From Myxococcota bacterium (GTDB lineage: Bacteria; Myxococcota_A; UBA796; UBA2385), in contig JBIJDH010000010.1 of assembly GCA_044344255.1 (NCBI GenBank), positions 64,001-128,000 of the forward strand: a stretch of DNA of 64,000 nt, in the 5' to 3' direction. The position numbers were made by a program, and so were the translations under genes. The notes under the pieces are model-generated. The model did not search any database and was not told where the DNA came from. It saw only the letters and a list, made by a program, of their open reading frames with translations. Within the stretch, counting starts at the first letter, position 1. Every line of letters begins with the position of its first letter. Of this stretch, positions 2,390 through 29,335 are shown one piece after another.

Positions 2390-3664
<1,275 letters not shown>

Positions 3665-16044: not shown

Positions 16045-18396
16045 GTGAGCACGATGGACTACGAGAAGCTCGGTGTCTTCTACCTCGGACGCCCGGTTGA
16101 CCCTGTCACCGGCGCCGTGCGGCCCGAGCCCCTGCTGCTCGCCTCGCGGGACCTCTGCACCCACGCGGTCTGCGTGGGGATGACGGGCAGCGGCAAGACC
16201 GGGCTCTCGGTGGCCCTGCTCGAAGAGGCAGCGATCGACGGCATCCCCGCCATCGTCATCGACCCCAAGGGAGACCTCGGCAACCTCGCGCTCACCTTCC
16301 CCGCCCTCGACGCCGCCTCCTTCGGCCCCTGGGTCGACCCCGACGAGGCGGCGCGGCAGGGACTCGAGCCCGAGGCCTGGGCGGCGAAGGTGGCGGCGAG
16401 CTGGAGGGCCGGCCTCGCCGAGAGCGACCAGACCGCGGCCCGCGTGCAGCGCCTGCGCGAGGCCTGTGAGGTGTCGATCTACACCCCCGGCAGCCGCGTG
16501 GGCCGGCCGCTGGCGATGCTGCGCTCGCTCGTCGCCCCGCCTCCTGGTCTGGACGAGGAGGTGCTCCAGGAGCGTGTCCTCACCGCGGTCTCCGGCCTGC
16601 TCGGCCTGCTCGGCAGTGAGGCCGATCCCTTGACCAGCCGCGAGCACATCCTGCTCTCCCGCCTCGTCCACGCCGCCTGGGCCGAGGGCCAGGACCTCGA
16701 CCTCGCCGCGCTGATCGGCGGCATCCAGAAGCCCCCCTTCAGCCGCCTCGGCGTCCTGGAGCTCGAGTCCTTCTACCCCGCGAAGGAGCGCTTCACCCTC
16801 GCGATGTCGCTCAACAACCTCCTCGCCTCCCCCGGCGCCGCCGCTTGGACCGAGGGAGAGCCCCTCGACGTCGCGCGGCTGCTGCACAGCCCCGCCGGCA
16901 AGCCGCGCATCTCGATCCTCTCGATCAGCCACCTCTCCGACGCCCAGCGCATGTTCGTCGTCTCGACGCTGCTCGGCGAGCTCGTGGCCTGGATGCGGCA
17001 GCAGCGCGGCACCAGCAGCCTCCGCGCCCTGCTCTTCATGGACGAGATCCAGGGCTACTTCCCGCCCACCGCCAACCCGCCCAGCAAGCCGCCGATGCTC
17101 ACCCTGCTCAAGCAGGCGCGCGCCTTCGGCCTCGGCGTGGTGCTGGCCACGCAGAACCCGGTCGATCTCGACTACAAGGGGCTGTCGAACTGCGGGATCT
17201 GGCTCATCGGCCGCCTCCAGACCGAGCGCGACCGCGCCCGCCTCACCGACGGCCTCTCCGCGGCGGGGGGCCCAGACAAGGCCACCCTGGACCGCCTGCT
17301 CTCCGCCACCGGCAAGCAGGTCTTCCTGCTCCACGACGTGCACCGCGCCGGGCCCGAGCTCTTCCGCACCCGCTGGACCCTCTCCTACCTGCGCGGCCCC
17401 CTCGGCCGCGAGCAGGTGCGGGCCCTCACCGCCGCAGAGGGCGCGCCCTCGACCGGCGGCCTCGCCAAGGCCCGCGCCGCGGCCCCCTCGACCCGCGAGC
17501 GGGGAGGGGCGACCGGCGCCCGGCCCGTGCTGCCCCCCGGGCTCGAGGAGCGCTTCCTCCAGGGAGACACGGAGGGCGGGGCCTACCACCCCGCGGTCTT
17601 CGCCTCCGTGAAGGTGCACTACGCCTCGGCGAAGGCCGGGGTGGACCACTGGGAGGCGCTCTCCCTCGCCGCCCCCTTCACAGACGACGGCGCCGCCCCC
17701 GACTGGGCCGCCGCCGAGGCCCTCTCCGCCGAGCGCCTGCTCCCCGCGCCCGAGGGCACGCTCCCCTTCGGTGAGCTGCCCCCCGCCGCCACCCAGAAGA
17801 CGGCCGGCGCCGCCTGGAGCAAGTCGCTCGCGGCCCACCTCTACCAAGAGCGGCCGCTCTGCCTCTATCAGTCGGTCGAACCTCGGCTCCTGTCCCGCCC
17901 AGGCGAGACCGCCGGAGACTTTCAGGCCCGCCTCTCCCTCGTGACCCGCGAGGCCCGCGACGCGCTGGCCGACCGCCTCCGCGACAAGGCCACGACGAAG
18001 CTCTCAGCGCTCGACGCCCGCCGCGCCCGCGCCGAGGCCAAGGTGGCGAAGGAGGAGTCCCAGGCCGACGCCGCCGTGCTCCACACCGCCGTGAGCTTCG
18101 GCTCCACGCTGCTCGGCGCCCTCTTCGGCCGAAAGACCTTCTCGAGCGGCAACCTCTCCAAGGCCGCCTCCACGGTGAAGTCCGCCGGCCGGGCCAATGA
18201 GCAGCGCTCCGACGTCGAGCGCGCCCGGGCCGAGCTCCTGGAGGTCGAGCAGGAGCGGGCGGCCCTCGAGGCCGAGCTCGAGGCCGAGATCGCCGCCCTC
18301 CCGAGCGCGCCGCCGGTGGTCACCGAGCTCAAGGTGGCCCCGAAGAAGGCCGACACGACGGTGGAGCGCGTCTACCTGCTCTGGCGGCCCGCCTAG
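16045..18396 (+). CDS. HerA/FtsK-superfamily ATPase with C-terminal coiled coil
   Basis: Walker A GMTGSGKT, IDPKGDL, Walker B LFMDE, and KQARAFGLGVVLATQNPVDLDYK. Confidence 0.85.
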   Translation: MSTMDYEKLGVFYLGRPVDPVTGAVRPEPLLLASRDLCTHAVCVGMTGSGKTGLSVALLEEAAIDGIPAIVIDPKGDLGNLALTFPALDAASFGPWVDPDEAARQGLEPEAWAAKVAASWRAGLAESDQTAARVQRLREACEVSIYTPGSRVGRPLAMLRSLVAPPPGLDEEVLQERVLTAVSGLLGLLGSEADPLTSREHILLSRLVHAAWAEGQDLDLAALIGGIQKPPFSRLGVLELESFYPAKERFTLAMSLNNLLASPGAAAWTEGEPLDVARLLHSPAGKPRISILSISHLSDAQRMFVVSTLLGELVAWMRQQRGTSSLRALLFMDEIQGYFPPTANPPSKPPMLTLLKQARAFGLGVVLATQNPVDLDYKGLSNCGIWLIGRLQTERDRARLTDGLSAAGGPDKATLDRLLSATGKQVFLLHDVHRAGPELFRTRWTLSYLRGPLGREQVRALTAAEGAPSTGGLAKARAAAPSTRERGGATGARPVLPPGLEERFLQGDTEGGAYHPAVFASVKVHYASAKAGVDHWEALSLAAPFTDDGAAPDWAAAEALSAERLLPAPEGTLPFGELPPAATQKTAGAAWSKSLAAHLYQERPLCLYQSVEPRLLSRPGETAGDFQARLSLVTREARDALADRLRDKATTKLSALDARRARAEAKVAKEESQADAAVLHTAVSFGSTLLGALFGRKTFSSGNLSKAASTVKSAGRANEQRSDVERARAELLEVEQERAALEAELEAEIAALPSAPPVVTELKVAPKKADTTVERVYLLWRPA

Positions 18397-19966: not shown

Positions 19967-20039
19967 CGACGCGCTCCCCCCAAGAGACCGAGAGGGCCGA
20001 CTCTACCCGAGCCGCGGAGGCGGTTGGAACCATCTGATC

Positions 20040-20228
20040 GCCCTTCGGGGCCATCGTTTCGCCCTTCGGGGCCATCGCATCGCCCTTCGGGGCCATCGCA
20101 TCGCCCTTCGGGGCCATCCCACCGCCCTTCGGGGCCATCGCACTGCCCTTCGGGGCCATCGCACTGCCCTTCGGGGCCATCCCACCGCCCTTTGGGGCCA
20201 TCGTTTCGCCCTTCGGGGCCATCTCCCT
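20040..20228. repeat. Tandem array of nine 21-bp units (GCCCTTCGGGGCCATC plus 5 variable nt)
   Basis: Counted directly. Each unit contains a GCCC-loop-GGGC hairpin; the loop is TTCG in eight units and TTTG in unit 8. Confidence 0.95.
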
Positions 20229-20883: not shown

Positions 20884-22443
20884 TCAGCAGCCGATGACCT
20901 GAACCACCCTCCCCTCCACCTCGACCTTCCGCTGGAAGATGCGCTCGGACCAGGGAGCGGTGCTGCGGAGGTCGAAGAGGATGAGCCAGCCTTCGTCGAG
21001 GCCCGACGTGTCGAGGTAACCAGCCAGTTGGAGGAGCCCCTCCTCCTCCGTCTCCGTGTCCCGGCGGAGCTTGAGCTCGATCGCGTGCCGCTCCCCCTTC
21101 CAGGTGACGAGGAGGTCGAGGGCGCCGCGGCCGAGGCCATATTCGCGGTCGATACGACCGCCCCCGTTCACCAGGCGCTGGAGGAAGGCCATCATCAAGA
21201 GGTGGGGGCCGGACTCCCGGTAGTGAAAGCCCTCGGCGGCGAGGTGGCCGTCCTTTCGCCAGAACTGCTGGAAGGCCGTCATCAGCACGCCCATGTCCAG
21301 GCTGCCGTCGGGGCGGATGTAGCGGGCGGTGGTGGGCGGCAGCGTCACCTGGATGGCCCAGTTGAGCACCCGCGGGATCACCTCCCGGTAGATGGGGTTC
21401 GCGATCTCCACGCCGCTCCCTCGGCGCACGAGGAGGCCGAGGCCGAGGAGGTACTGGAGATCGTCATCGAGGAGGTCTGTGTTGGGTCGCTCGCCCGCGA
21501 TCATGGGGTCGAGCACGCGGCGGACGCGGTCTTCATGCAGGCGGGCGACGAGGGAGTCGATGTGGGAGCGCCGCTCCTGGATAAGGGTCTCCCTCGCGGC
21601 CTCTACATGTTCCACGGTGACGGGGAGACCGCGGTCGCGGAGGTCCGAGCCGACGATCTGGTCGGCGAGGGCGTTGGTGAGCCAGGGGTGGCCACAGCCG
21701 AGGGCGTAGATGCGGGCCACGGCATCGGGTTCGAAGGGCTGACCGGTGGCCGTTGTGTGCTGGGCGAGCAGCTCGGCCACCTCGGCCTCGGTGAAGGGGA
21801 CGAGGGTGGTGGCCTCGGCGGTGATGTTGAAGGGGGAGGCGGTGCCGAGCCAGGAGAGGGTCCGGCGGTCCTCCTGGCGGAGGGTGTAGTCCCGAACCTG
21901 CCGCTGACCGATCAGGACGATGCTCGCGGGAAACGGGCTCTCGGCGCGACCGATGTAGCCCTCCCGGAGCTGCGTCAGGAAGGAGACCATCGCCGTCCCG
22001 ACCAGCCCGTCGGCCTCGTCGAGGAAGAGGAGCAGCGGTGGCCCTGGCGTCTCGGCGAGCCGCCGAAGGTAGCCGTGAATCGCCCGTGACGGATCGTCGA
22101 GCAGCTCCTCCACCTCCATCTTGGAGGGGAGGGTGAGCGCGGGAAGGTAGATGGTGAGCGCGTGCTGGAAGGCCCCGAGCACCGTGCGGAAGGCGGGGGC
22201 CGGATCGGGCTGCTCTCGGGCAGACTGCAGGTCGACCCACACCGCCCGGAAGCGCCCGCTCGCGTTGTAGTGGCGCATCATCCACCGCGCCGAGGTGGTC
22301 TTGCCCACCTGCCGCCCGGCGTGGAGCGTGAAGTAGCGGTGGTCCTCCACGAGCTCCATGACGCGGCCGAGCCGGCGCTCGGGGGGGAGCATGTAGTGCT
22401 CCCCGGGGATGCAGGGGCCGGCGATGTTGAAGCCTGGGCGCAT
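20884..22443 (-). CDS. AAA-type P-loop ATPase with C-terminal PD-(D/E)XK nuclease-like domain
   Basis: FNIAGPC start, AGRQVGKTT Walker A, FLDEAD Walker B; C-terminal REYGLGRGALDLLV...IELK...QLAGYL. Confidence 0.85.
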   Translation of the reverse strand: MRPGFNIAGPCIPGEHYMLPPERRLGRVMELVEDHRYFTLHAGRQVGKTTSARWMMRHYNASGRFRAVWVDLQSAREQPDPAPAFRTVLGAFQHALTIYLPALTLPSKMEVEELLDDPSRAIHGYLRRLAETPGPPLLLFLDEADGLVGTAMVSFLTQLREGYIGRAESPFPASIVLIGQRQVRDYTLRQEDRRTLSWLGTASPFNITAEATTLVPFTEAEVAELLAQHTTATGQPFEPDAVARIYALGCGHPWLTNALADQIVGSDLRDRGLPVTVEHVEAARETLIQERRSHIDSLVARLHEDRVRRVLDPMIAGERPNTDLLDDDLQYLLGLGLLVRRGSGVEIANPIYREVIPRVLNWAIQVTLPPTTARYIRPDGSLDMGVLMTAFQQFWRKDGHLAAEGFHYRESGPHLLMMAFLQRLVNGGGRIDREYGLGRGALDLLVTWKGERHAIELKLRRDTETEEEGLLQLAGYLDTSGLDEGWLILFDLRSTAPWSERIFQRKVEVEGRVVQVIGC

Positions 22444-22536
22444 GGGATCCTCTCGCCCTGGCCCTAACGACACGATGGCCTGGGTGCTCCAACCCCGAGC
22501 CTCTCCCCCCGAAGGCCGCTGCCCCACGCCCTTGAC

Positions 22537-23850
22537 TCAGGCGACCCTTCGCCGCCGGAGTAGGAGGAGCGGCAGGGCCAGCAGCCCGGCGGTTGGTCCG
22601 AAGCCGGAGGAGGCGCAGCCACCGCAGGCGGCGCCGCCCGAGCCCGACTTTGGCGGCGCGGCGTTGGAGCCGGTGTCGCCGGTGGGATCGGCGTCGGCGT
22701 CTCCGTCCGCATCCCCGTCGGCGTCGGCATCTCCATCGGCGTCCGCGTCGGCATCCCCATCCGCGTCGGTGTCGCTGTCCGCGTCGGCGTCTGTGTCCGC
22801 GTCCGCCTCGCCGGTGTCCGGATCCCCGGTGTCGCCGGGGATGGTGGGCTCGGCCATCTCGTAGGCGCCAAGGTCTGCGATGGCGATTCCGTCCCCGTCT
22901 CCGTCGAGGGGGCGAGCCGTGCCCTCGTGGTCGATGAGGACGGCGGTGCCCACGGCGGCGTCGATGGCCGGGGAGCCGGGGAGGAGCTGGAGGTCGTCGT
23001 TGGTCCAGTCGCCGTCGTCGGACCAGTCGACGAAGAGGGGGTCGGCCTCGATGTAGTCGGTGCCCCAGTCGACGCAGTCACTGCTGACACAGGCCCCGTT
23101 GTCCCAAAACAGGTTGTTCGACAGGTGCCAATCGGCGGCGTCGTAGGGAGGGTAGGTGCCCAAGGAGTAGCCGGTCGCGCCGACGAAGATATTGTCGGTG
23201 AAGGAGACGTCGTTCATATTCGGGCTGCCGATGAAGTGCCCACCGTTGCCCACGAAGGTGTTGTTCTGGACATCCAGGCTGGAGCCGCCCTCGTCGTACT
23301 CGAACGATTCGATCCCGGAGTTGTTGCCCAGGAAGAGGTTGTTCTGAATGGTGCCAGTGACGGACGCGAACTGAATGCCCCGGTCGCAATCCTCGAAGGT
23401 GGAGGAATCCACCTCGAAGAGACTCATGTATTCCGTGAAGATGCACACGTTGGTGCCACTACCATGGAATCCAACATGCTCGACCGTCACCTGGGGAGTG
23501 GCGCCACCGAATGTGGTAAGGGAGAGCGTGCCATCCCCGACGACTGGATCGGCCTCAAAGGTGATGCCAGAGACCAGCGCGCTGCCCTTGAAGTACAGCC
23601 CGAGGGTGGCATAGGCACCGCTGAAGGTCACTACCACCTGCTCTTCCCCATCGCCGACCAGCTCGATAGTCTGACCAGCCCAGGAGTCCTCTTCGATGAT
23701 GTATGCGCCCGATCGCACCTCGATTCGGACCTCGTCCGGCGCGTCCGCCAGAGCATCGGCCAGCTCGGTGTAGTCACCACCGCCTGCGGGATCGACGACG
23801 AGCGTGGGAACAGCGGCGAAGAGCGAAGAGCTGATGAGGAGGTAGAACAT
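22537..23850 (-). CDS. Secreted right-handed beta-helix surface protein with Asp/Ala linker and MYXO-CTERM-like tail
   Basis: Signal peptide; NNLF/NNTF/DNIF beta-helix repeats; LLPGSPAIDA...DLGAYE; (DA)n tract; C-terminal CGGCAS...LLALPLLLLRRRR. Confidence 0.8.
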   Translation of the reverse strand: MFYLLISSSLFAAVPTLVVDPAGGGDYTELADALADAPDEVRIEVRSGAYIIEEDSWAGQTIELVGDGEEQVVVTFSGAYATLGLYFKGSALVSGITFEADPVVGDGTLSLTTFGGATPQVTVEHVGFHGSGTNVCIFTEYMSLFEVDSSTFEDCDRGIQFASVTGTIQNNLFLGNNSGIESFEYDEGGSSLDVQNNTFVGNGGHFIGSPNMNDVSFTDNIFVGATGYSLGTYPPYDAADWHLSNNLFWDNGACVSSDCVDWGTDYIEADPLFVDWSDDGDWTNDDLQLLPGSPAIDAAVGTAVLIDHEGTARPLDGDGDGIAIADLGAYEMAEPTIPGDTGDPDTGEADADTDADADSDTDADGDADADADGDADADGDADGDADADPTGDTGSNAAPPKSGSGGAACGGCASSGFGPTAGLLALPLLLLRRRRVA

Positions 23851-25431
23851 CAGTTGATCAACTCTGCGAAGTAGACGGCCGGGGTGTTGACGCCGTTGAT
23901 GCAGGTCATGGCGGCCCCATCGTAGTTGGCAGCCGAGCCTGCGTCGAAGAACATTCCCTCCCGAGGCGTGCTACCGTCGAGATAGGTGAAGACGTCTACG
24001 TTGGCCATGCAGTCGGTGTCGAGCGGCGTGTCATAGATGTCGTCGAACTTGAAGGTGGGATTGGGCTGGCAGTCGAGGCAGTCTTCGACTGTTGGCGATG
24101 AGGACAGGTCGGTGACATAAAAGGTGGTCAGCGTGCCGGCATTCCAGGCCTTCGCATAGACCTTGAAGTCGTCCGTGGCCCCGTCGGGGAGGGGGACCAC
24201 ACCCGGGTCGTGGTAGTCGGCGATGAGGGCCTCGGGGCAGCCTGAGCCGTCCAGGCTCACCACCCACTCCTGTCCTGAGGCATCCCAGGTGGCCAGCAGG
24301 ATGTCATTTTTGTTGTCGTTGTCGGGCAGCGTGGCTTGGCAGGTACCGTCCTCCTCGTCGTCCCCTTCGCCGGAGAAGAGCACCATCGGCTCATCCACGC
24401 TGAGGTCGGGGGGGCCCAGCACCATGTACTCCCAGGCCCACCGGCCGTGCAGGGCGTTGTCCACCTCGGAGCAGCCTGCGGTGCCGTCGGCGCAGATGGC
24501 CACCTCGCCGACCCCCGACCAGTCGCAGACCCCGGGATTCCCGGAGTTGCAGGTGAGGTCGTAGAGCCCGAAGTCGTCGCCGATGTCGTCCACCGAATCC
24601 ACGGAGACCACGTGATTGTCGGGAAACCAGGATCCTGAGCCGGGGTGGTTCTGCGCGAGCAGGCGCACGACGTCATCCACGCCATCGTTCACGGGCAAAG
24701 CATAGGGATGACCAATGTACTTGAAGTCGTCCACGGCGGTCTCACTCTGGGCCACCGGCACAGGCGGGGCGAGCCAGGTGGCGTTGTTGAAGTCCTGCCA
24801 ACCCGATGTCGTCGCGTACTTGTACTTGATCGTGTGATTGCTGGAGTCCTCCCAGTACATGGCCAGGTGATCGTCCCGCGTCCACCCGCTCGGGTAGAAG
24901 AAGACCGAGGCCGCCCCGGGCCCCTGCTGGGCGTAGTCCGTGGTGGAGGCTGCGGTGACGCCTGTCACCAGCCAGACCTCGGGTTCGGTGGAGAGGATGT
25001 AGGTGTCGTTGGTTGGGCTGTCCTCGGCGTCACCCAGCAGGTCCGTACAGCCGGAGTCATCGCAGGCGTAGATCTTGAAGTAATACTCCCTGTCCGCCCG
25101 GTAGACGAAGGTGTTTCGGCTGGTGTTCACCGCGGGGGCGTCGAACTGGATCCCGTCGGTGGGGGAGGTGGGCGTCCCGGCATCGTTCAGCACGATCCGG
25201 TACTTCTGGAGAGAGAAGCTACCGCAACTGGAGGCCGCCGCGGCCCAGGACACCGTGAAGGCCGCCGAAGAGCGGGGGTCGTGGGTGACCGCGGCGAGCT
25301 CCGCGTCCCAGCCACAAGCCGCGTGGGCGGAGCGCGGCACGACCAGCGTCAGGAGGCTACCGGCGACAACGACGAGGCAGCGAGGCAGCGAGGCAGCGAG
25401 GCAGCGAGGCAGCGAGGCAGCGAGGCAGCAT
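23850..25431 (-). CDS. Secreted Cys/Asp-rich hypothetical protein; 5' end frameshifted by an octamer repeat (candidate phase-variable gene)
   Basis: Long ORF 23850-25340. The RBS-bearing ATG at 25431 is out of frame because of 7 copies of CTGCCTCG; 2, 5 or 8 copies restore the frame and signal peptide. Confidence 0.7.
25373..25428. repeat. Perfect simple sequence repeat (CGAGGCAG)x7
   Basis: Counted directly; 56 bp, immediately adjacent to the minus-strand ATG at 25429-25431. Confidence 0.97.
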
Positions 25432-25758
25432 ACGACGACTCCGAGAGGGCTACGTGCAATATCGAAGACTCACGCCCCAATCCTATATGACCGCGTAGTC
25501 CCCGTCTCACCCGAAACCGTCCCGCACACCTTCTTGACAATAACTGACAGTCGCTTACGGCAGAACCTGCCGGCCAACCCGCTTCCCAAGCGTTGAGGAC
25601 GCGAGAGCCCGCCCAGCGCCTCGCCGACAGACACCGGACCCGGTCCGCCGAGGCCTATGGCCCCTCGCTCACGCTCTACAAGATGGCCACGGTCAGCGCC
25701 GAAGAGGACGGCGCGCTCCGACCCCGCGCCTCCGCGCATCGGGGCAACGTACCGCCGC

Positions 25759-26358
25759 TCAATCCAGCAGCTCCACGTCCACCGAGCCTTCCACCTCGTC
25801 CGGCCTCTGGCAGCAGCCGCTCGTCGCGCCGTCGACGCCCGCGCGCACGGCCCACTCGACGGTGACGGGGGCGTCGCCGATCGCCTGGAGTTGGTACTCT
25901 ACGACCGCCTCGCAGGAGGAAGCGCCGTCGGCGCAGGTGAGCTCGAGGTCACAGAAGATCCACTCCGGGGCGCCGGTGTCCGAGTCCTCCCTCTCGATCT
26001 CGATCTCGCAGGTGCGGGTTGTGTCGCCCACCACCTGACCGTTCACGCGCACCCCAAGCCCCCCGCCAACGGTTGAGCCGCCTCCCGCCCCGGAGAGACC
26101 GTTGACCCGCAGGCCCACCCACCAGTAGGACACGCCCAGCTCATTCTCCATGGCCGTACGGAAGCGCAGCGAGGCCGGCTCATCCGGACTGAGCACGATC
26201 GTCCCGTCCAGGTCTTGTACCAAGCCCCAATAGGGCAGCTTGAAGGCCATCCCCACCGCTGCGGCGAACACCAGCGCCCACGCTCTGCGCCGACTGTCAC
26301 CGGCCCCCCGTCGCGCCTCCACGCGCGGAGCGGAGCGGTTCGGGTCTCTACGGCTCAA
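25759..26358 (-). CDS. Hypothetical exported or membrane-anchored beta-rich protein with Cys pairs
   Basis: N-terminal hydrophobic segment followed by beta-strand-like sequence; start uncertain. Confidence 0.5.
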   Translation of the reverse strand: MSRRDPNRSAPRVEARRGAGDSRRRAWALVFAAAVGMAFKLPYWGLVQDLDGTIVLSPDEPASLRFRTAMENELGVSYWWVGLRVNGLSGAGGGSTVGGGLGVRVNGQVVGDTTRTCEIEIEREDSDTGAPEWIFCDLELTCADGASSCEAVVEYQLQAIGDAPVTVEWAVRAGVDGATSGCCQRPDEVEGSVDVELLD

Positions 26359-26418: not shown

Positions 26419-29268
26419 TCAGCCCAATCGCCGCTCCCAGGCCCGCAACAGCGGCTCGAGGTGCCCGCGCAGGGCCTCCTTTACGGAGGGGACCACGGCG
26501 TCGGTGCGCGGGTCGCGGACGGTGCCGCCGACGATGCCATAGGTGCGCGCCAGCTCGAGCTCGGCGGGCTCGGCGAGGCCGGCCTGGAGGTCTGCGCCCA
26601 GGCGGGAGAGGGTGGGGCGGTCGGCGCCGTGGAGGACGTGGCTGAGACCACGAGCCGGGAGGTCGATCCTCAGCCGACAGCGGCGCTGGGCGAGGAGCCG
26701 GCCCCGGACATGCCGGGCGTCCTCCACCTCGGCCCGGTGGGCGCCGGCCCCGCCGCGGGCGGGGAAGACCTCCACCCGCGCCCGCTCGACCTCCCCGTCG
26801 TTCACCCGGCGGCGGTGGAGCCCCCGCTCCATCTCGAGGATGCGCAGCACGCCGGGCCCCTCGACCTCGAGCACCGCCGAGAGGAGCTGGCCGTTCTGCT
26901 CCTCCTCGGCGGCGACCGAGACGCGGAGGCCCTGGCGCGGCAGCCAGGCGGCGTACAGCCCGACGAGCTCGGTCAGCCAGTCGCTGGCCGGGCTGAGCGG
27001 GTCGCCCGAGCTCAAGTACAGCCAGGCCGCGGGGATCGAGAGCCCATCGCCCACCTCGGCGGCGCGGCGGCCGGCGGCGGCGGACTCCTCGATGAGCCGG
27101 GCGAGCTCCTCCAACGGAGGCCAGGCGCCGCGATCGACGAGCGCACCGAGGCGGAGCGCGGGCTCGGCGAGGCGGGCGTCGGTCTGGATGCGGGCGTCGA
27201 GCGAGGCGTACCGCTGGAGCAGGGCCTGGGCGGCCTCGGCGTCATCCCAGAAGGTGGGGGCGTGGCTCTGCTCGATGAGCGCCGCCGCCTGGCTGACCCG
27301 CGCCGCCGCCGCCTCGTGAAGCGGCTCCCAGCGCTGCGCCTGCTCGCGGGCGGCCGCCTGCAGCTCCTCTTGGTCGAGGTGGCGCGGCCGCTCGCCCACC
27401 CGGAGCGTGGCCTTGGGCTCGGCCTGGGGCAGCACCCGCACCTGCACGCGGTCGGCCCGGATGGTGACCTGCAGCCGCGCGCCCGAGCTGCGCTGAGAGC
27501 GCACGATGGCCTCGGCGACGGCGCCCGCGACGTCGCGCTCGATGACCCGCCGGAGGAAGCGGGCCCCGTAGAGGGGGTGGTAGCCGTGGGCCGCCAGCCA
27601 CTCGACCACCTCGGGCTCGAATTCCACCTTGTGACCGCGGTGTCGGATGCCCTCTCGTTGCAGCAGGCCCGCGAGCTCCCGCTGGGCGATGGCCCGGATG
27701 TGGGCGCGGTCGAGCGGGTGGAAGTGGACGATGCGGTCGAAGCGGTTGAGCAGCTCGAAGGCGAAGCTCCGGTGGAGGCGCCGGTCGAGCTCGGCGTCGA
27801 GGGCGGCGAGGTCGGGCACGCCCTGAAAGCCGATGCCCTTCTCTCGAAAGACCTCGGCGCCGGTGTTCGAGGTGGCGATGATGATGAGGCTGCGGGCCGA
27901 GATGGTGTCGCCGGCCCCGTTCGTAAACTGCCCCTCATCGAAGAGCTGCATCAGGGCGTTGTGGACCTTGCTCGTCGCCTTCTCGAACTCGTCGAGCAGC
28001 AGCACGCCGAAGGGGTGGCCGCGCAGCCGCTTGGCCAGGGCGCCCACCTTGTTGTCGGGCGGGTAGCCGTTCGGGTCCCCCATCAGGTTGTTGAGCCCGT
28101 TGTCGTCGGCGAAGTCGGTGAGGTTCACCCGCACCATGCGCTGGCGGTCGCCGAAGAGGTACTCGGCGAGGAGCTGGGCGGTGTGCGTCTTGCCGACGCC
28201 GGTGGGGCCCACGAAGAGGAAGACGCCGAAGGGCCGGTTGCTGTCGGTGAGGCCGGCCTTGATGATGGCCACCATGCGCATCACCGCCTCGACCGACTCG
28301 GCCTGCCCGAGCAGGCGCTCCTCGAGGAAGCGGCCCATGGCGGCGAGATCAAGCGGCTCTTCGGGATCGACCAGCCGCGAGGGCACCCGGGTGGAGGCGC
28401 TGAAGCGGGCCACCACGTCCTTCGGCGTGACCACGAGGGGGGCGGCGTTGGGGGAGGGGTCATCGCGGGCGGGGAGGAGGTCGCGGGTCTGGCTCAGGAG
28501 CTCGAGCACCTTCCGCGGGTAGGGCTTGTCGCCGAGGAAGCGCCCGGTGAGCTCGATGGCGATGTGCTGGGCCTCGGCGTTGACCGCGCGGTGGCTGCGG
28601 CCGGCCTGCGTCTCGCTCCAGCGGGCGACGATGCGCTGCAGCTCGGTGCCCTTGGGCTCGGTGACCGGGATGAGCAGCAGGGTCTCGGCCAGATCGCTCG
28701 AGAAGTCGAGCATCTGCTCGAGGTCTTGCAGCGCCCCCTCGCCGAGGAGGGGGAGGCCCGACTGGACGAGGAAGCGGTAAAGGATGGCCTCCCAGTCCAT
28801 CCGATAGGCGATGTGGACGTCGCGGATGTAGACGATGACGCCAGCGGCGGCGAGGGCGTCGAAGAGTCGGTGGGCGAACTCGCCGGCCTGCTCGCGGTCC
28901 TTGAACTGGGTGGAGATGTTGCGGAGGCTGAGCTGCACCACCCGGCGGTCGCGCAGCACCGCCGCACCCTGCCCGGCGAGGGCCCGCCGCACGACCTCGT
29001 GGATGATCACCGTCTTGCCGATGCCCGCCTTGCCGACGAGCACGGGCGAGCGGGCCGGCGTGATCGAGAGCATCTCCTCGACCTGCCGCACGGTGTCGTC
29101 GACCTCGAAGGCCGGGCTCAGCCGCCCCTCGCGGAGGGCGGCGCTCAGGTCTTGATCGATCCACCGCTCGATGTCGACCGGCTTGTCGTCTCGCGCCCCG
29201 CCCGCCCCGCCCGCCTCGCCCGCTTCGTACTCTTGGAGGTCCTCCTCCTCTTCCCGCCGCTTGCCCAT
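26419..29268 (-). CDS. ClpA/B-like double AAA+ ATPase fused to a release-factor-2-like (PCRF) C-terminal region
   Basis: GKAGIGKT; RPFGVFLFVGPTGVGKT, LLDEFEKA, IIIATSN, IGF, ELLNRFD, YGARFLRRVIE; then FWDD, DWLTELVGLYAAW, ERGLHR, RTY and VRDPRT. GGAGG RBS before ATG 29268. Confidence 0.88.
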   Translation of the reverse strand: MGKRREEEEDLQEYEAGEAGGAGGARDDKPVDIERWIDQDLSAALREGRLSPAFEVDDTVRQVEEMLSITPARSPVLVGKAGIGKTVIIHEVVRRALAGQGAAVLRDRRVVQLSLRNISTQFKDREQAGEFAHRLFDALAAAGVIVYIRDVHIAYRMDWEAILYRFLVQSGLPLLGEGALQDLEQMLDFSSDLAETLLLIPVTEPKGTELQRIVARWSETQAGRSHRAVNAEAQHIAIELTGRFLGDKPYPRKVLELLSQTRDLLPARDDPSPNAAPLVVTPKDVVARFSASTRVPSRLVDPEEPLDLAAMGRFLEERLLGQAESVEAVMRMVAIIKAGLTDSNRPFGVFLFVGPTGVGKTHTAQLLAEYLFGDRQRMVRVNLTDFADDNGLNNLMGDPNGYPPDNKVGALAKRLRGHPFGVLLLDEFEKATSKVHNALMQLFDEGQFTNGAGDTISARSLIIIATSNTGAEVFREKGIGFQGVPDLAALDAELDRRLHRSFAFELLNRFDRIVHFHPLDRAHIRAIAQRELAGLLQREGIRHRGHKVEFEPEVVEWLAAHGYHPLYGARFLRRVIERDVAGAVAEAIVRSQRSSGARLQVTIRADRVQVRVLPQAEPKATLRVGERPRHLDQEELQAAAREQAQRWEPLHEAAAARVSQAAALIEQSHAPTFWDDAEAAQALLQRYASLDARIQTDARLAEPALRLGALVDRGAWPPLEELARLIEESAAAGRRAAEVGDGLSIPAAWLYLSSGDPLSPASDWLTELVGLYAAWLPRQGLRVSVAAEEEQNGQLLSAVLEVEGPGVLRILEMERGLHRRRVNDGEVERARVEVFPARGGAGAHRAEVEDARHVRGRLLAQRRCRLRIDLPARGLSHVLHGADRPTLSRLGADLQAGLAEPAELELARTYGIVGGTVRDPRTDAVVPSVKEALRGHLEPLLRAWERRLG

Positions 29269-29335
29269 TCGGCCTCCGATCCGAGAGGGTAACCAGCGCG
29301 GGGAGCGGGGGTCGGCCGGGGCCCCCGCGGGAGGC

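Follow-up and report, generated by a model that had tools for sequence, protein, structure and literature searches.

Phase variation driven by simple sequence repeats (SSRs) has been defined and studied almost wholly in pathogens. In Neisseria gonorrhoeae, the opa (P.II) genes carry a (CTCTT)n tract in the region coding for the signal peptide, according to the available text of PMC3899988. The criteria for SSR phase variation, as set out in the accessible part of a 2025 review (PMC11868660), comprise genetic variation at a single locus, an evolved tract, reversibility without selection, a rate above about 1 in 100,000, and mixed alleles in the population; the same part of the review points to a gap in knowledge about bacteria from elsewhere, ocean and soil among them. 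In Myxococcus xanthus, the yellow/tan phase variation is governed by an HTH-Xre regulator and involves 41 genes, as reported in the accessible portion of PMC8538405. We found no literature joining Myxococcota or myxobacteria to SSR-driven frameshift phase variation, most subscription papers and supplements lying outside the search. Here, we describe an octamer tract placed directly behind a start codon in a lake bacterium that is likely one of the Myxococcota. We give a probability of about 85% to the reading that this tract is a slipped-strand ON/OFF switch (an SSR contingency locus), now OFF, which would control a predicted secreted protein built of a fibronectin type III (FN3) domain and a propeller and possibly, via translational coupling, a surface-anchored gene. 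The mechanism is known and Opa-like, and the lineage and the gene family are new.

The tract lies on the minus strand of the window, that is, the whole 64,000-nucleotide stretch of DNA analysed. A Shine-Dalgarno-like GGAG (25442-25439) is followed by a 7-nt spacer, an ATG (25431-25429) and seven perfect CTGCCTCG units (25428-25373), an array of 57 nt for which TRF gives 7.1 copies with 100% matches. The ATG is likely the true start, as the orthologs P0002, P0012, P0027 and P0040 use an equivalent start position. With seven units, the ATG frame encodes an OFF-state product of 24 aa (25357-25431) and ends at TAG 25359-25357. In silico, two, five, eight or eleven units join the ATG to a 496-aa open reading frame (ORF), yielding 513, 521, 529 and 537 aa, and every other unit number within 0-11 leads to a stop inside 32 aa; the unit number by itself decides the frame at this locus. 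The frame of the 496-aa ORF is closed upstream by TGA 25472-25470 and contains no ATG, GTG or TTG before GTG 25340. The earlier note had described the ATG with its seven octamers and early stop, the joining of the long ORF by 2, 5 or 8 copies, and the lack of the three start codons between the upstream stop and 25340; sequence, TRF and translation bear out all of this, but the note overlooked an in-frame, non-canonical ATT (25460-25458, minus strand), from which a 536-aa frame including the signal core can be read and which is, by sequence, a possible weak alternative start bypassing the switch.

Within the 8.18-Mb genome, a 16-nt tandem of two CTGCCTCG units occurs only at this locus. The tract is therefore not a chance repeat, since even the dimer is otherwise absent. 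No inverted arm was found near the array. A dispersed repeat element or a hairpin was rejected on these two grounds. A search of positions 22300-25800 returned no sigma-70 promoter or convincing terminator.

Immediately behind the tract, and out of frame with the ATG, the minus strand encodes the hydrophobic core (Kyte-Doolittle 11-residue mean of 2.55) and an Ala-His-Ala cleavage motif of a predicted Sec signal peptide (25320-25372). A simple scan of the in-frame alleles shows an n-region with 1-4 basic residues, the core at the same mean hydropathy of 2.55 and the AHA motif, so that the three elements of a Sec export signal (n-region, hydrophobic core and Ala-x-Ala site) are predicted in each. 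A similar junction of small residues and Cys follows the signal core in many homologs. The Sec signal peptide proposed earlier for the joined product holds up, as the relatives P0002 and P0012 use this start and signal peptide. Added in-frame units would lengthen only the n-region of the signal (24, 32 and 40 aa) and leave the hydrophobic core unchanged, so the 5- and 8-unit products would be exported as well.

The mature protein is predicted to consist of two domains. The N-terminal one (24981-25316, minus strand) is modelled by AlphaFold2 as FN3-like (pLDDT 92.6); FN3-domain entries fill its VIA-align list, and 4yfe aligns with a Z-score of 11.0 and an rmsd of 2.7 over 96 residues. The second (23850-24965, minus strand) is a predicted five-bladed β-propeller with a GH43/GH32/GH117-like fold, seen in the AlphaFold2 model of P0012 (pLDDT 89.1). 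Residues 145-517 of this model align with 3k1u over 269 positions (Z 22.3, rmsd 3.1, 8% identity). The model also matches 6n1b, the GalNAc deacetylase of F. plautii, with a Z-score of 20.0; we take the latter enzyme to be metal-dependent. The available part of PMC11762096 makes no mention of its fold or metal. The predicted fold is thus shared with GH43, GH32, GH117 and GH62 propellers and with 6n1b (Z 22.3 to 3k1u and 20.0 to 6n1b), but identity to them is 6-13%, with no Pfam or PDB sequence match, and this family has an N-terminal FN3 domain, many Cys and, as its best-conserved polar residues at the starts of blades, three His that may stand in for the usual carboxylates. Foldseek gave low TM-scores, with sialidases and other propellers at the top of its ranking, VIA-align being clearer, and ESM Atlas matches were all under 0.9, offering fn3, BNR and GH43 as leads only. 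Sequence searches of Pfam, NCBIfam and PDB assigned the window protein to no family; Pfam matched none of the 43 family members to a GH family at an E-value of 0.05, and no PDB sequence match had an E-value below 0.3. No paper on the family was found by title or abstract start.

His211, His298 and His377 (numbered from GTG 25340) are present in 40, 41 and 43 of the 43 alignment rows, respectively; in P0012, the conserved positions are His236, His323, His402 and Asp403, and the blade-1 position is variable. Across the 43 rows, the best-conserved polar residues are the three His with Asp403, Glu146, Arg106, Lys418 and eight Cys. At the C-terminus, almost all full-length family members also share a hydrophobic strand and a final Asn, which are conserved and form the last propeller strand in the model. 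The three His may ligate a metal in a site acting on glycans. The least certain part of our reading is that the propeller would be a metal-dependent, glycan-acting enzyme or lectin that helps to build or modify a cell-surface structure.

The propeller gene is followed by a second gene (22537-23850, minus strand) encoding a 437-aa protein with a right-handed β-helix (Pfam Beta_helix, E 4.8e-6), an Asp/Ala linker and a C-terminal sorting-type tail, which scores above the cut-off for Synergist-CTERM and below it for MYXO-CTERM. Its start overlaps the stop of the propeller gene (TGATG), and the two genes are likely co-translated, to judge from this arrangement. Sixteen of 20 family loci have a second gene starting at most 15 nt from the stop, with a stop/start overlap in nine. 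The partner is a β-helix protein with a sorting tail in the window, and next to the paralog on contig C43 a predicted lipoprotein containing MopE-type as well as FG-GAP repeats; at other loci partners were assigned to one of these two kinds by eye. The OFF state may also lower the downstream partner by polar control.

The surroundings of the operon hold several further features. Directly downstream (20884-22434, minus strand) lies a gene for an AAA ATPase whose C-terminus weakly matches a NucS-like nuclease (E 0.003); an unusual fusion, in which a ClpB-like double AAA protein ends in a PCRF (release-factor) domain, is encoded at 26419-29280 (minus strand), and a 783-aa HerA/DUF87-like ATPase at 16045-18396 (plus strand). 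A 21-nt tandem repeat of 9.2 copies with 90% matches occupies 20030-20223. A similar 21-nt array upstream of the C43 paralog (L002, about 3418-3645) suggests a dispersed repeat family.

Close relatives carry other unit numbers. The comparison of related genomes proposed in the earlier note brought up in-frame readings: the N-terminus of P0002 (85% identical) corresponds to the two-unit reading, with Ser replacing Cys at residue 5, and that of P0012 (89% identical) to the five-unit reading, in which a Cys-to-Ser change implies a unit that differs by one base. With seven units in the window, the unit number thus varies among relatives. P0027 and P0040 each have five partly degenerate units; the units of all four relatives were deduced from protein translations. 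Gene calls identical to the window protein (P0001, P0008, P0009 and P0011) start at GTG 25340 or further downstream. Automated annotation begins OFF alleles downstream and conceals the signal peptide.

The window stretch is present in at least 20 lake or freshwater metagenome runs from 18 studies (2020-2025). Four of the 20 runs were examined, none of them among the three flagged overall as possible sources. In all four, both flanking contigs enter the array for ~30 nt and then break, as expected at k=31, the value used for the contigs, if at least five units are present; the array is therefore not a one-off assembly error. No short allele was found in these runs, whose contigs are blind to counts of at least five units and lose rare variants, and no allele change at the window locus was observed within the species among same-sequence gene calls and the contigs of the four runs. 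The k-mer depth over the collapsed array corresponds to 9.1, 6.5, 10.3 and 6.4-7.4 units, only a hint at depths of 5-28 with foreign k-mers mixed in. Metagenome contigs scanned with the protein and with a 30-nt flank pattern gave no match, nor did genome contigs scanned with the window protein, records of this genome or of near kin being possibly excluded from both; no RNA dataset containing the stretch was listed. At 24483-24750, run X10 contains a second haplotype, ~9% divergent and at near-equal depth, which suggests inter-strain recombination within the propeller.

The host genome (G000), assembled from a lake metagenome, comprises 8.18 Mb in 83 contigs at 71% GC. Its two recA genes and its 42 MYXO-CTERM matches, of which 14 control genomes gave none, point to the Myxococcota; a look-up with RecA returned mixed phyla. 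Habitat and genome size suggest a free-living lifestyle. The genome encodes MutS and MutL, and a general repair-less mutator was rejected on that account.

Non-triplet tracts were sought throughout this genome, and 217 passed the thresholds used. A scan centred on start codons returned 47 loose candidates, with three clear cases, defined as a long tract of units of 4 nt or larger between the start and the signal peptide. These are the window locus and tracts on contigs C43 and C33. In the single family paralog of the genome (C43, 32% identity), (TCTCC)x6 closely follows a TTG preceded by GGAGG and is out of frame (C43:98579-98609); this TTG is also where P0155, 97% identical to the paralog, begins, there with a short tract that is in frame. 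The surrounding region (C43:95550-98612, L002/L040, minus strand) encodes the paralog and then a predicted MopE/FG-GAP lipoprotein, and upstream lie a partial duplicate of partner-gene DNA and the 21-nt array. On C33, an in-frame (CCCGCTCT)x5 follows the ATG of a gene for a Cys-rich protein, predicted to be secreted, that has RTX calcium-binding repeats and is unrelated to the propeller family; this gene precedes one for a MopE-repeat protein (C33:659-3912, L047, minus strand; tract C33:3865-3907). Shorter non-triplet tracts, all in frame, follow the starts of genes for predicted exported proteins at C64:67777-67792, C43:93720-93734, C17:75208-75219 and C2:167563-167574, and may be further switches or chance. 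Perfect tracts of 4- to 13-nt units stand just upstream of starts at C2:201700-201739, C14:57811-57836, C19:11085-11135 and C36:392196-392228, where they are possible promoter or ribosome-site spacing switches.

The propeller proteins (family 1) were then followed through the order. A profile built from 43 sequences found the family in 18 of the order's 154 genomes. Outside the order, it gave no match in 182 genomes of the class and 401 of the phylum, for which 3-8 candidates were scored per genome. The count covered loci whose N-terminus matched and whose upstream DNA was available, leaving out L032, L034, L035, L039, L042, L045, L054 and L056, which lack a full 5′ end or an N-terminal match, and duplicates; a perfect non-triplet tract is present in the 150 nt at the 5′ end of 16 of 27 loci (59%), and a triplet tract in none of the 27. 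The tracts fall into nine unit types: an octamer, a heptamer, three pentamers, a tetramer, CT, G-runs and C-runs. Among the 11 loci below the tract threshold, eight have an in-frame start led by a Shine-Dalgarno sequence, one has none by the pattern used, and the remaining two, L025 and L055, have weak repeats and are out of frame. No independent non-triplet tract lies in the 97 kb of family-1 flanks, where the single match belongs to a neighbouring paralog. In the host genome, the same thresholds and a somewhat wider interval give at most 89 gene models with a tract out of 6000. For the RTX-repeat proteins (family 2), of which 30 of 35 matches were examined, 13 of 30 loci carry a 5′ non-triplet tract (CT, C-runs or octamers), with eight tracts elsewhere in 88 kb of flanks; a 13-mer upstream of the L079 start was not counted.

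Tract lengths differ between close copies. Three paralogs in genome G143 have the same heptamer at 9, 5 and 5 units, and three versions of a G060 gene that are at least 99.6% identical (P0051, P0159 and P0160) have CT tracts of 27, 19 and 21 nt, the 19-nt length read from DNA and the other two from translation. Homopolymer and dinucleotide lengths in other assemblies may contain sequencing errors. In a quick tree (without the fragments L014, L017, L044 and L055), the unit types sit on separate supported branches, some beside tract-free sisters, such as L026 beside L040. The tracts appear to have been gained convergently, and unusually clearly so, with different units occupying one position on separate family-1 branches and in a second, unrelated secreted family.

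Held against the criteria of PMC11868660, in the part of that text available, the locus is a candidate for phase variation on two counts. Variation at a single locus is seen in a unit number that sets the frame, in relatives with 2, 5 and 7 units and in CT alleles of 19, 21 and 27 nt. An evolved, mutable locus rather than chance is indicated by tracts at 16 of 27 and 13 of 30 loci, against family-1 flanks (97 kb) without an independent tract and at most 89 of 6000 genes.

The coding sequences behind OFF tracts bear on whether the gene has simply been lost. The dN/dS ratios of OFF versus ON paralog pairs are 0.13, 0.15 and 0.16, beside 0.15 for an ON/ON pair and 0.11 for a tract-free pair (L076/L085 and L044/L014, misaligned or nearly empty, were dropped). 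Codon differences between the window gene and its second haplotype in run X10 are synonymous in 18 cases and non-synonymous in 6; L041 and L055, both OFF, are separated by 8 synonymous changes and 1 non-synonymous change. Ten of 11 OFF family-1 matches are free of internal stops, several of them being contig-end fragments, and nine of ten OFF family-2 bodies keep their RTX repeats. By this comparison, OFF copies appear as constrained as ON copies, and the OFF state would mostly not reflect decay. Such constraint sits poorly with one-way inactivation, under which the tract expanded a single time, OFF became fixed in the lake population and what is left is a recent pseudogene; mutable tracts would then mark easily lost genes instead of reversible switches. 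Consistent with that history, all same-species gene calls lack an in-frame N-terminus, the four runs yielded no short allele, the family is patchy (18/154 genomes), and some copies are damaged: P0027 has an internal deletion, P0040 a truncation, P0011/P0013 a break, L021 and L025 one stop each, and L076 is truncated. Yet long in-frame tracts exist (5 units in P0012, about 10 in L058 and 9 in L043), and the in-frame share of 5/16 in family 1, 3/13 in family 2 and 8/29 in total fits one-third (p 0.56, kin being non-independent, so that p-values overstate). The ON/OFF call refers to the start nearest the tract, L022 and L024 having further in-frame starts upstream. We consider one-way inactivation unlikely.

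Two other explanations concern the tract itself. The 7-unit allele might still make the exported protein, through ATT 25460 or ribosomal frameshifting, the tract then tuning its level; the ATT does open a 536-aa frame with the signal core, and upstream of the tract, other in-frame starts are available in some homologs. Initiation at ATT is rare and weak, orthologs begin at the ATG, and it is the ATG that GGAG precedes, which makes such tuning a very improbable account. Least credible is an artefact, either a wrong copy number in the assembly or neutral repeat litter that landed in signal peptides by chance. The genome does have 217 non-triplet tracts, but the octamer dimer is genome-unique with no inverted arm nearby, 59% of family 5′ regions have tracts, all non-triplet, beside tract-free flanks, and most tracts break the frame, which tolerated litter would not. 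Assembly error was the danger that the earlier note saw for its own reading: a 57-nt array with at least five units in all four runs stands against it, while the exact number is uncertain, the depth suggesting 6.4 to 10.3 units. Taken together, the in-frame alleles of relatives, the convergent tracts across the family and OFF copies that are not decaying favour the contingency locus that the note had proposed.

If the octamer tract is such a switch, replication slippage would add or remove 8-nt units at a rate sufficient to maintain both ON and OFF cells in the population, and one length in three would restore the frame. The population would then be a mix of cells with and without the exported protein and probably its anchored partner. 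By analogy, recognition of a surface structure by phages or grazers would be the likeliest selective driver. A far wider reading, which we offer tentatively and regard as rather doubtful, is that one order of uncultured, likely myxobacterial, environmental bacteria possesses a lineage-wide contingency repertoire: at least two unrelated families of Cys-rich secreted proteins would have independently gained different mutable repeats behind their starts, each gene standing first in an operon ahead of a surface-anchored partner, which would let cells exchange surface modules at random, and the propeller would be a new class of His-triad metal enzyme editing surface glycans against phages or grazers.

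At least nine unit types at one position provide strong comparative evidence that switchability would be selected without a host immune system. As the host occurs in at least 20 public lake and freshwater runs (2020-2025), allele frequencies can be tracked against phages, grazers and seasons, and what selects phase variation in free-living bacteria becomes directly testable in a lake host. The controlled protein itself belongs to a family without a name, and its predicted active site is unusual.

The locus can be compared with several described systems, as far as the accessible texts go. As in the yellow/tan variation of M. xanthus, phenotypic switching would occur in a myxobacterium, here by prediction; unlike the window locus, the yellow/tan system is described in the available text of PMC8538405 with no mention of a repeat-driven frameshift. 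With the mod methyltransferases of Haemophilus and Neisseria and with lic1 (PMC3899988), the locus shares repeats in the 5′ coding region, lineage-specific units within one family and alternative starts in other frames. However, mod and lic1 encode cytoplasmic enzymes and mostly have 4-nt units, whereas the present tracts head two secreted, Cys-rich families and have units of 1 to 8 nt. The resemblance to opa lies in a non-triplet repeat inside DNA coding for a signal peptide, a unit number that sets the frame, ON/OFF control of an exported protein and several tract-bearing paralogs. The window locus differs from opa in its 8-nt unit directly after the ATG, in a host that is likely a free-living lake bacterium without a host immune system to evade, and in units that vary between paralogs and genomes where opa has one shared unit. 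The opa product is an outer-membrane β-barrel; that of the window is a predicted FN3-propeller, whose switching we infer from sequence.
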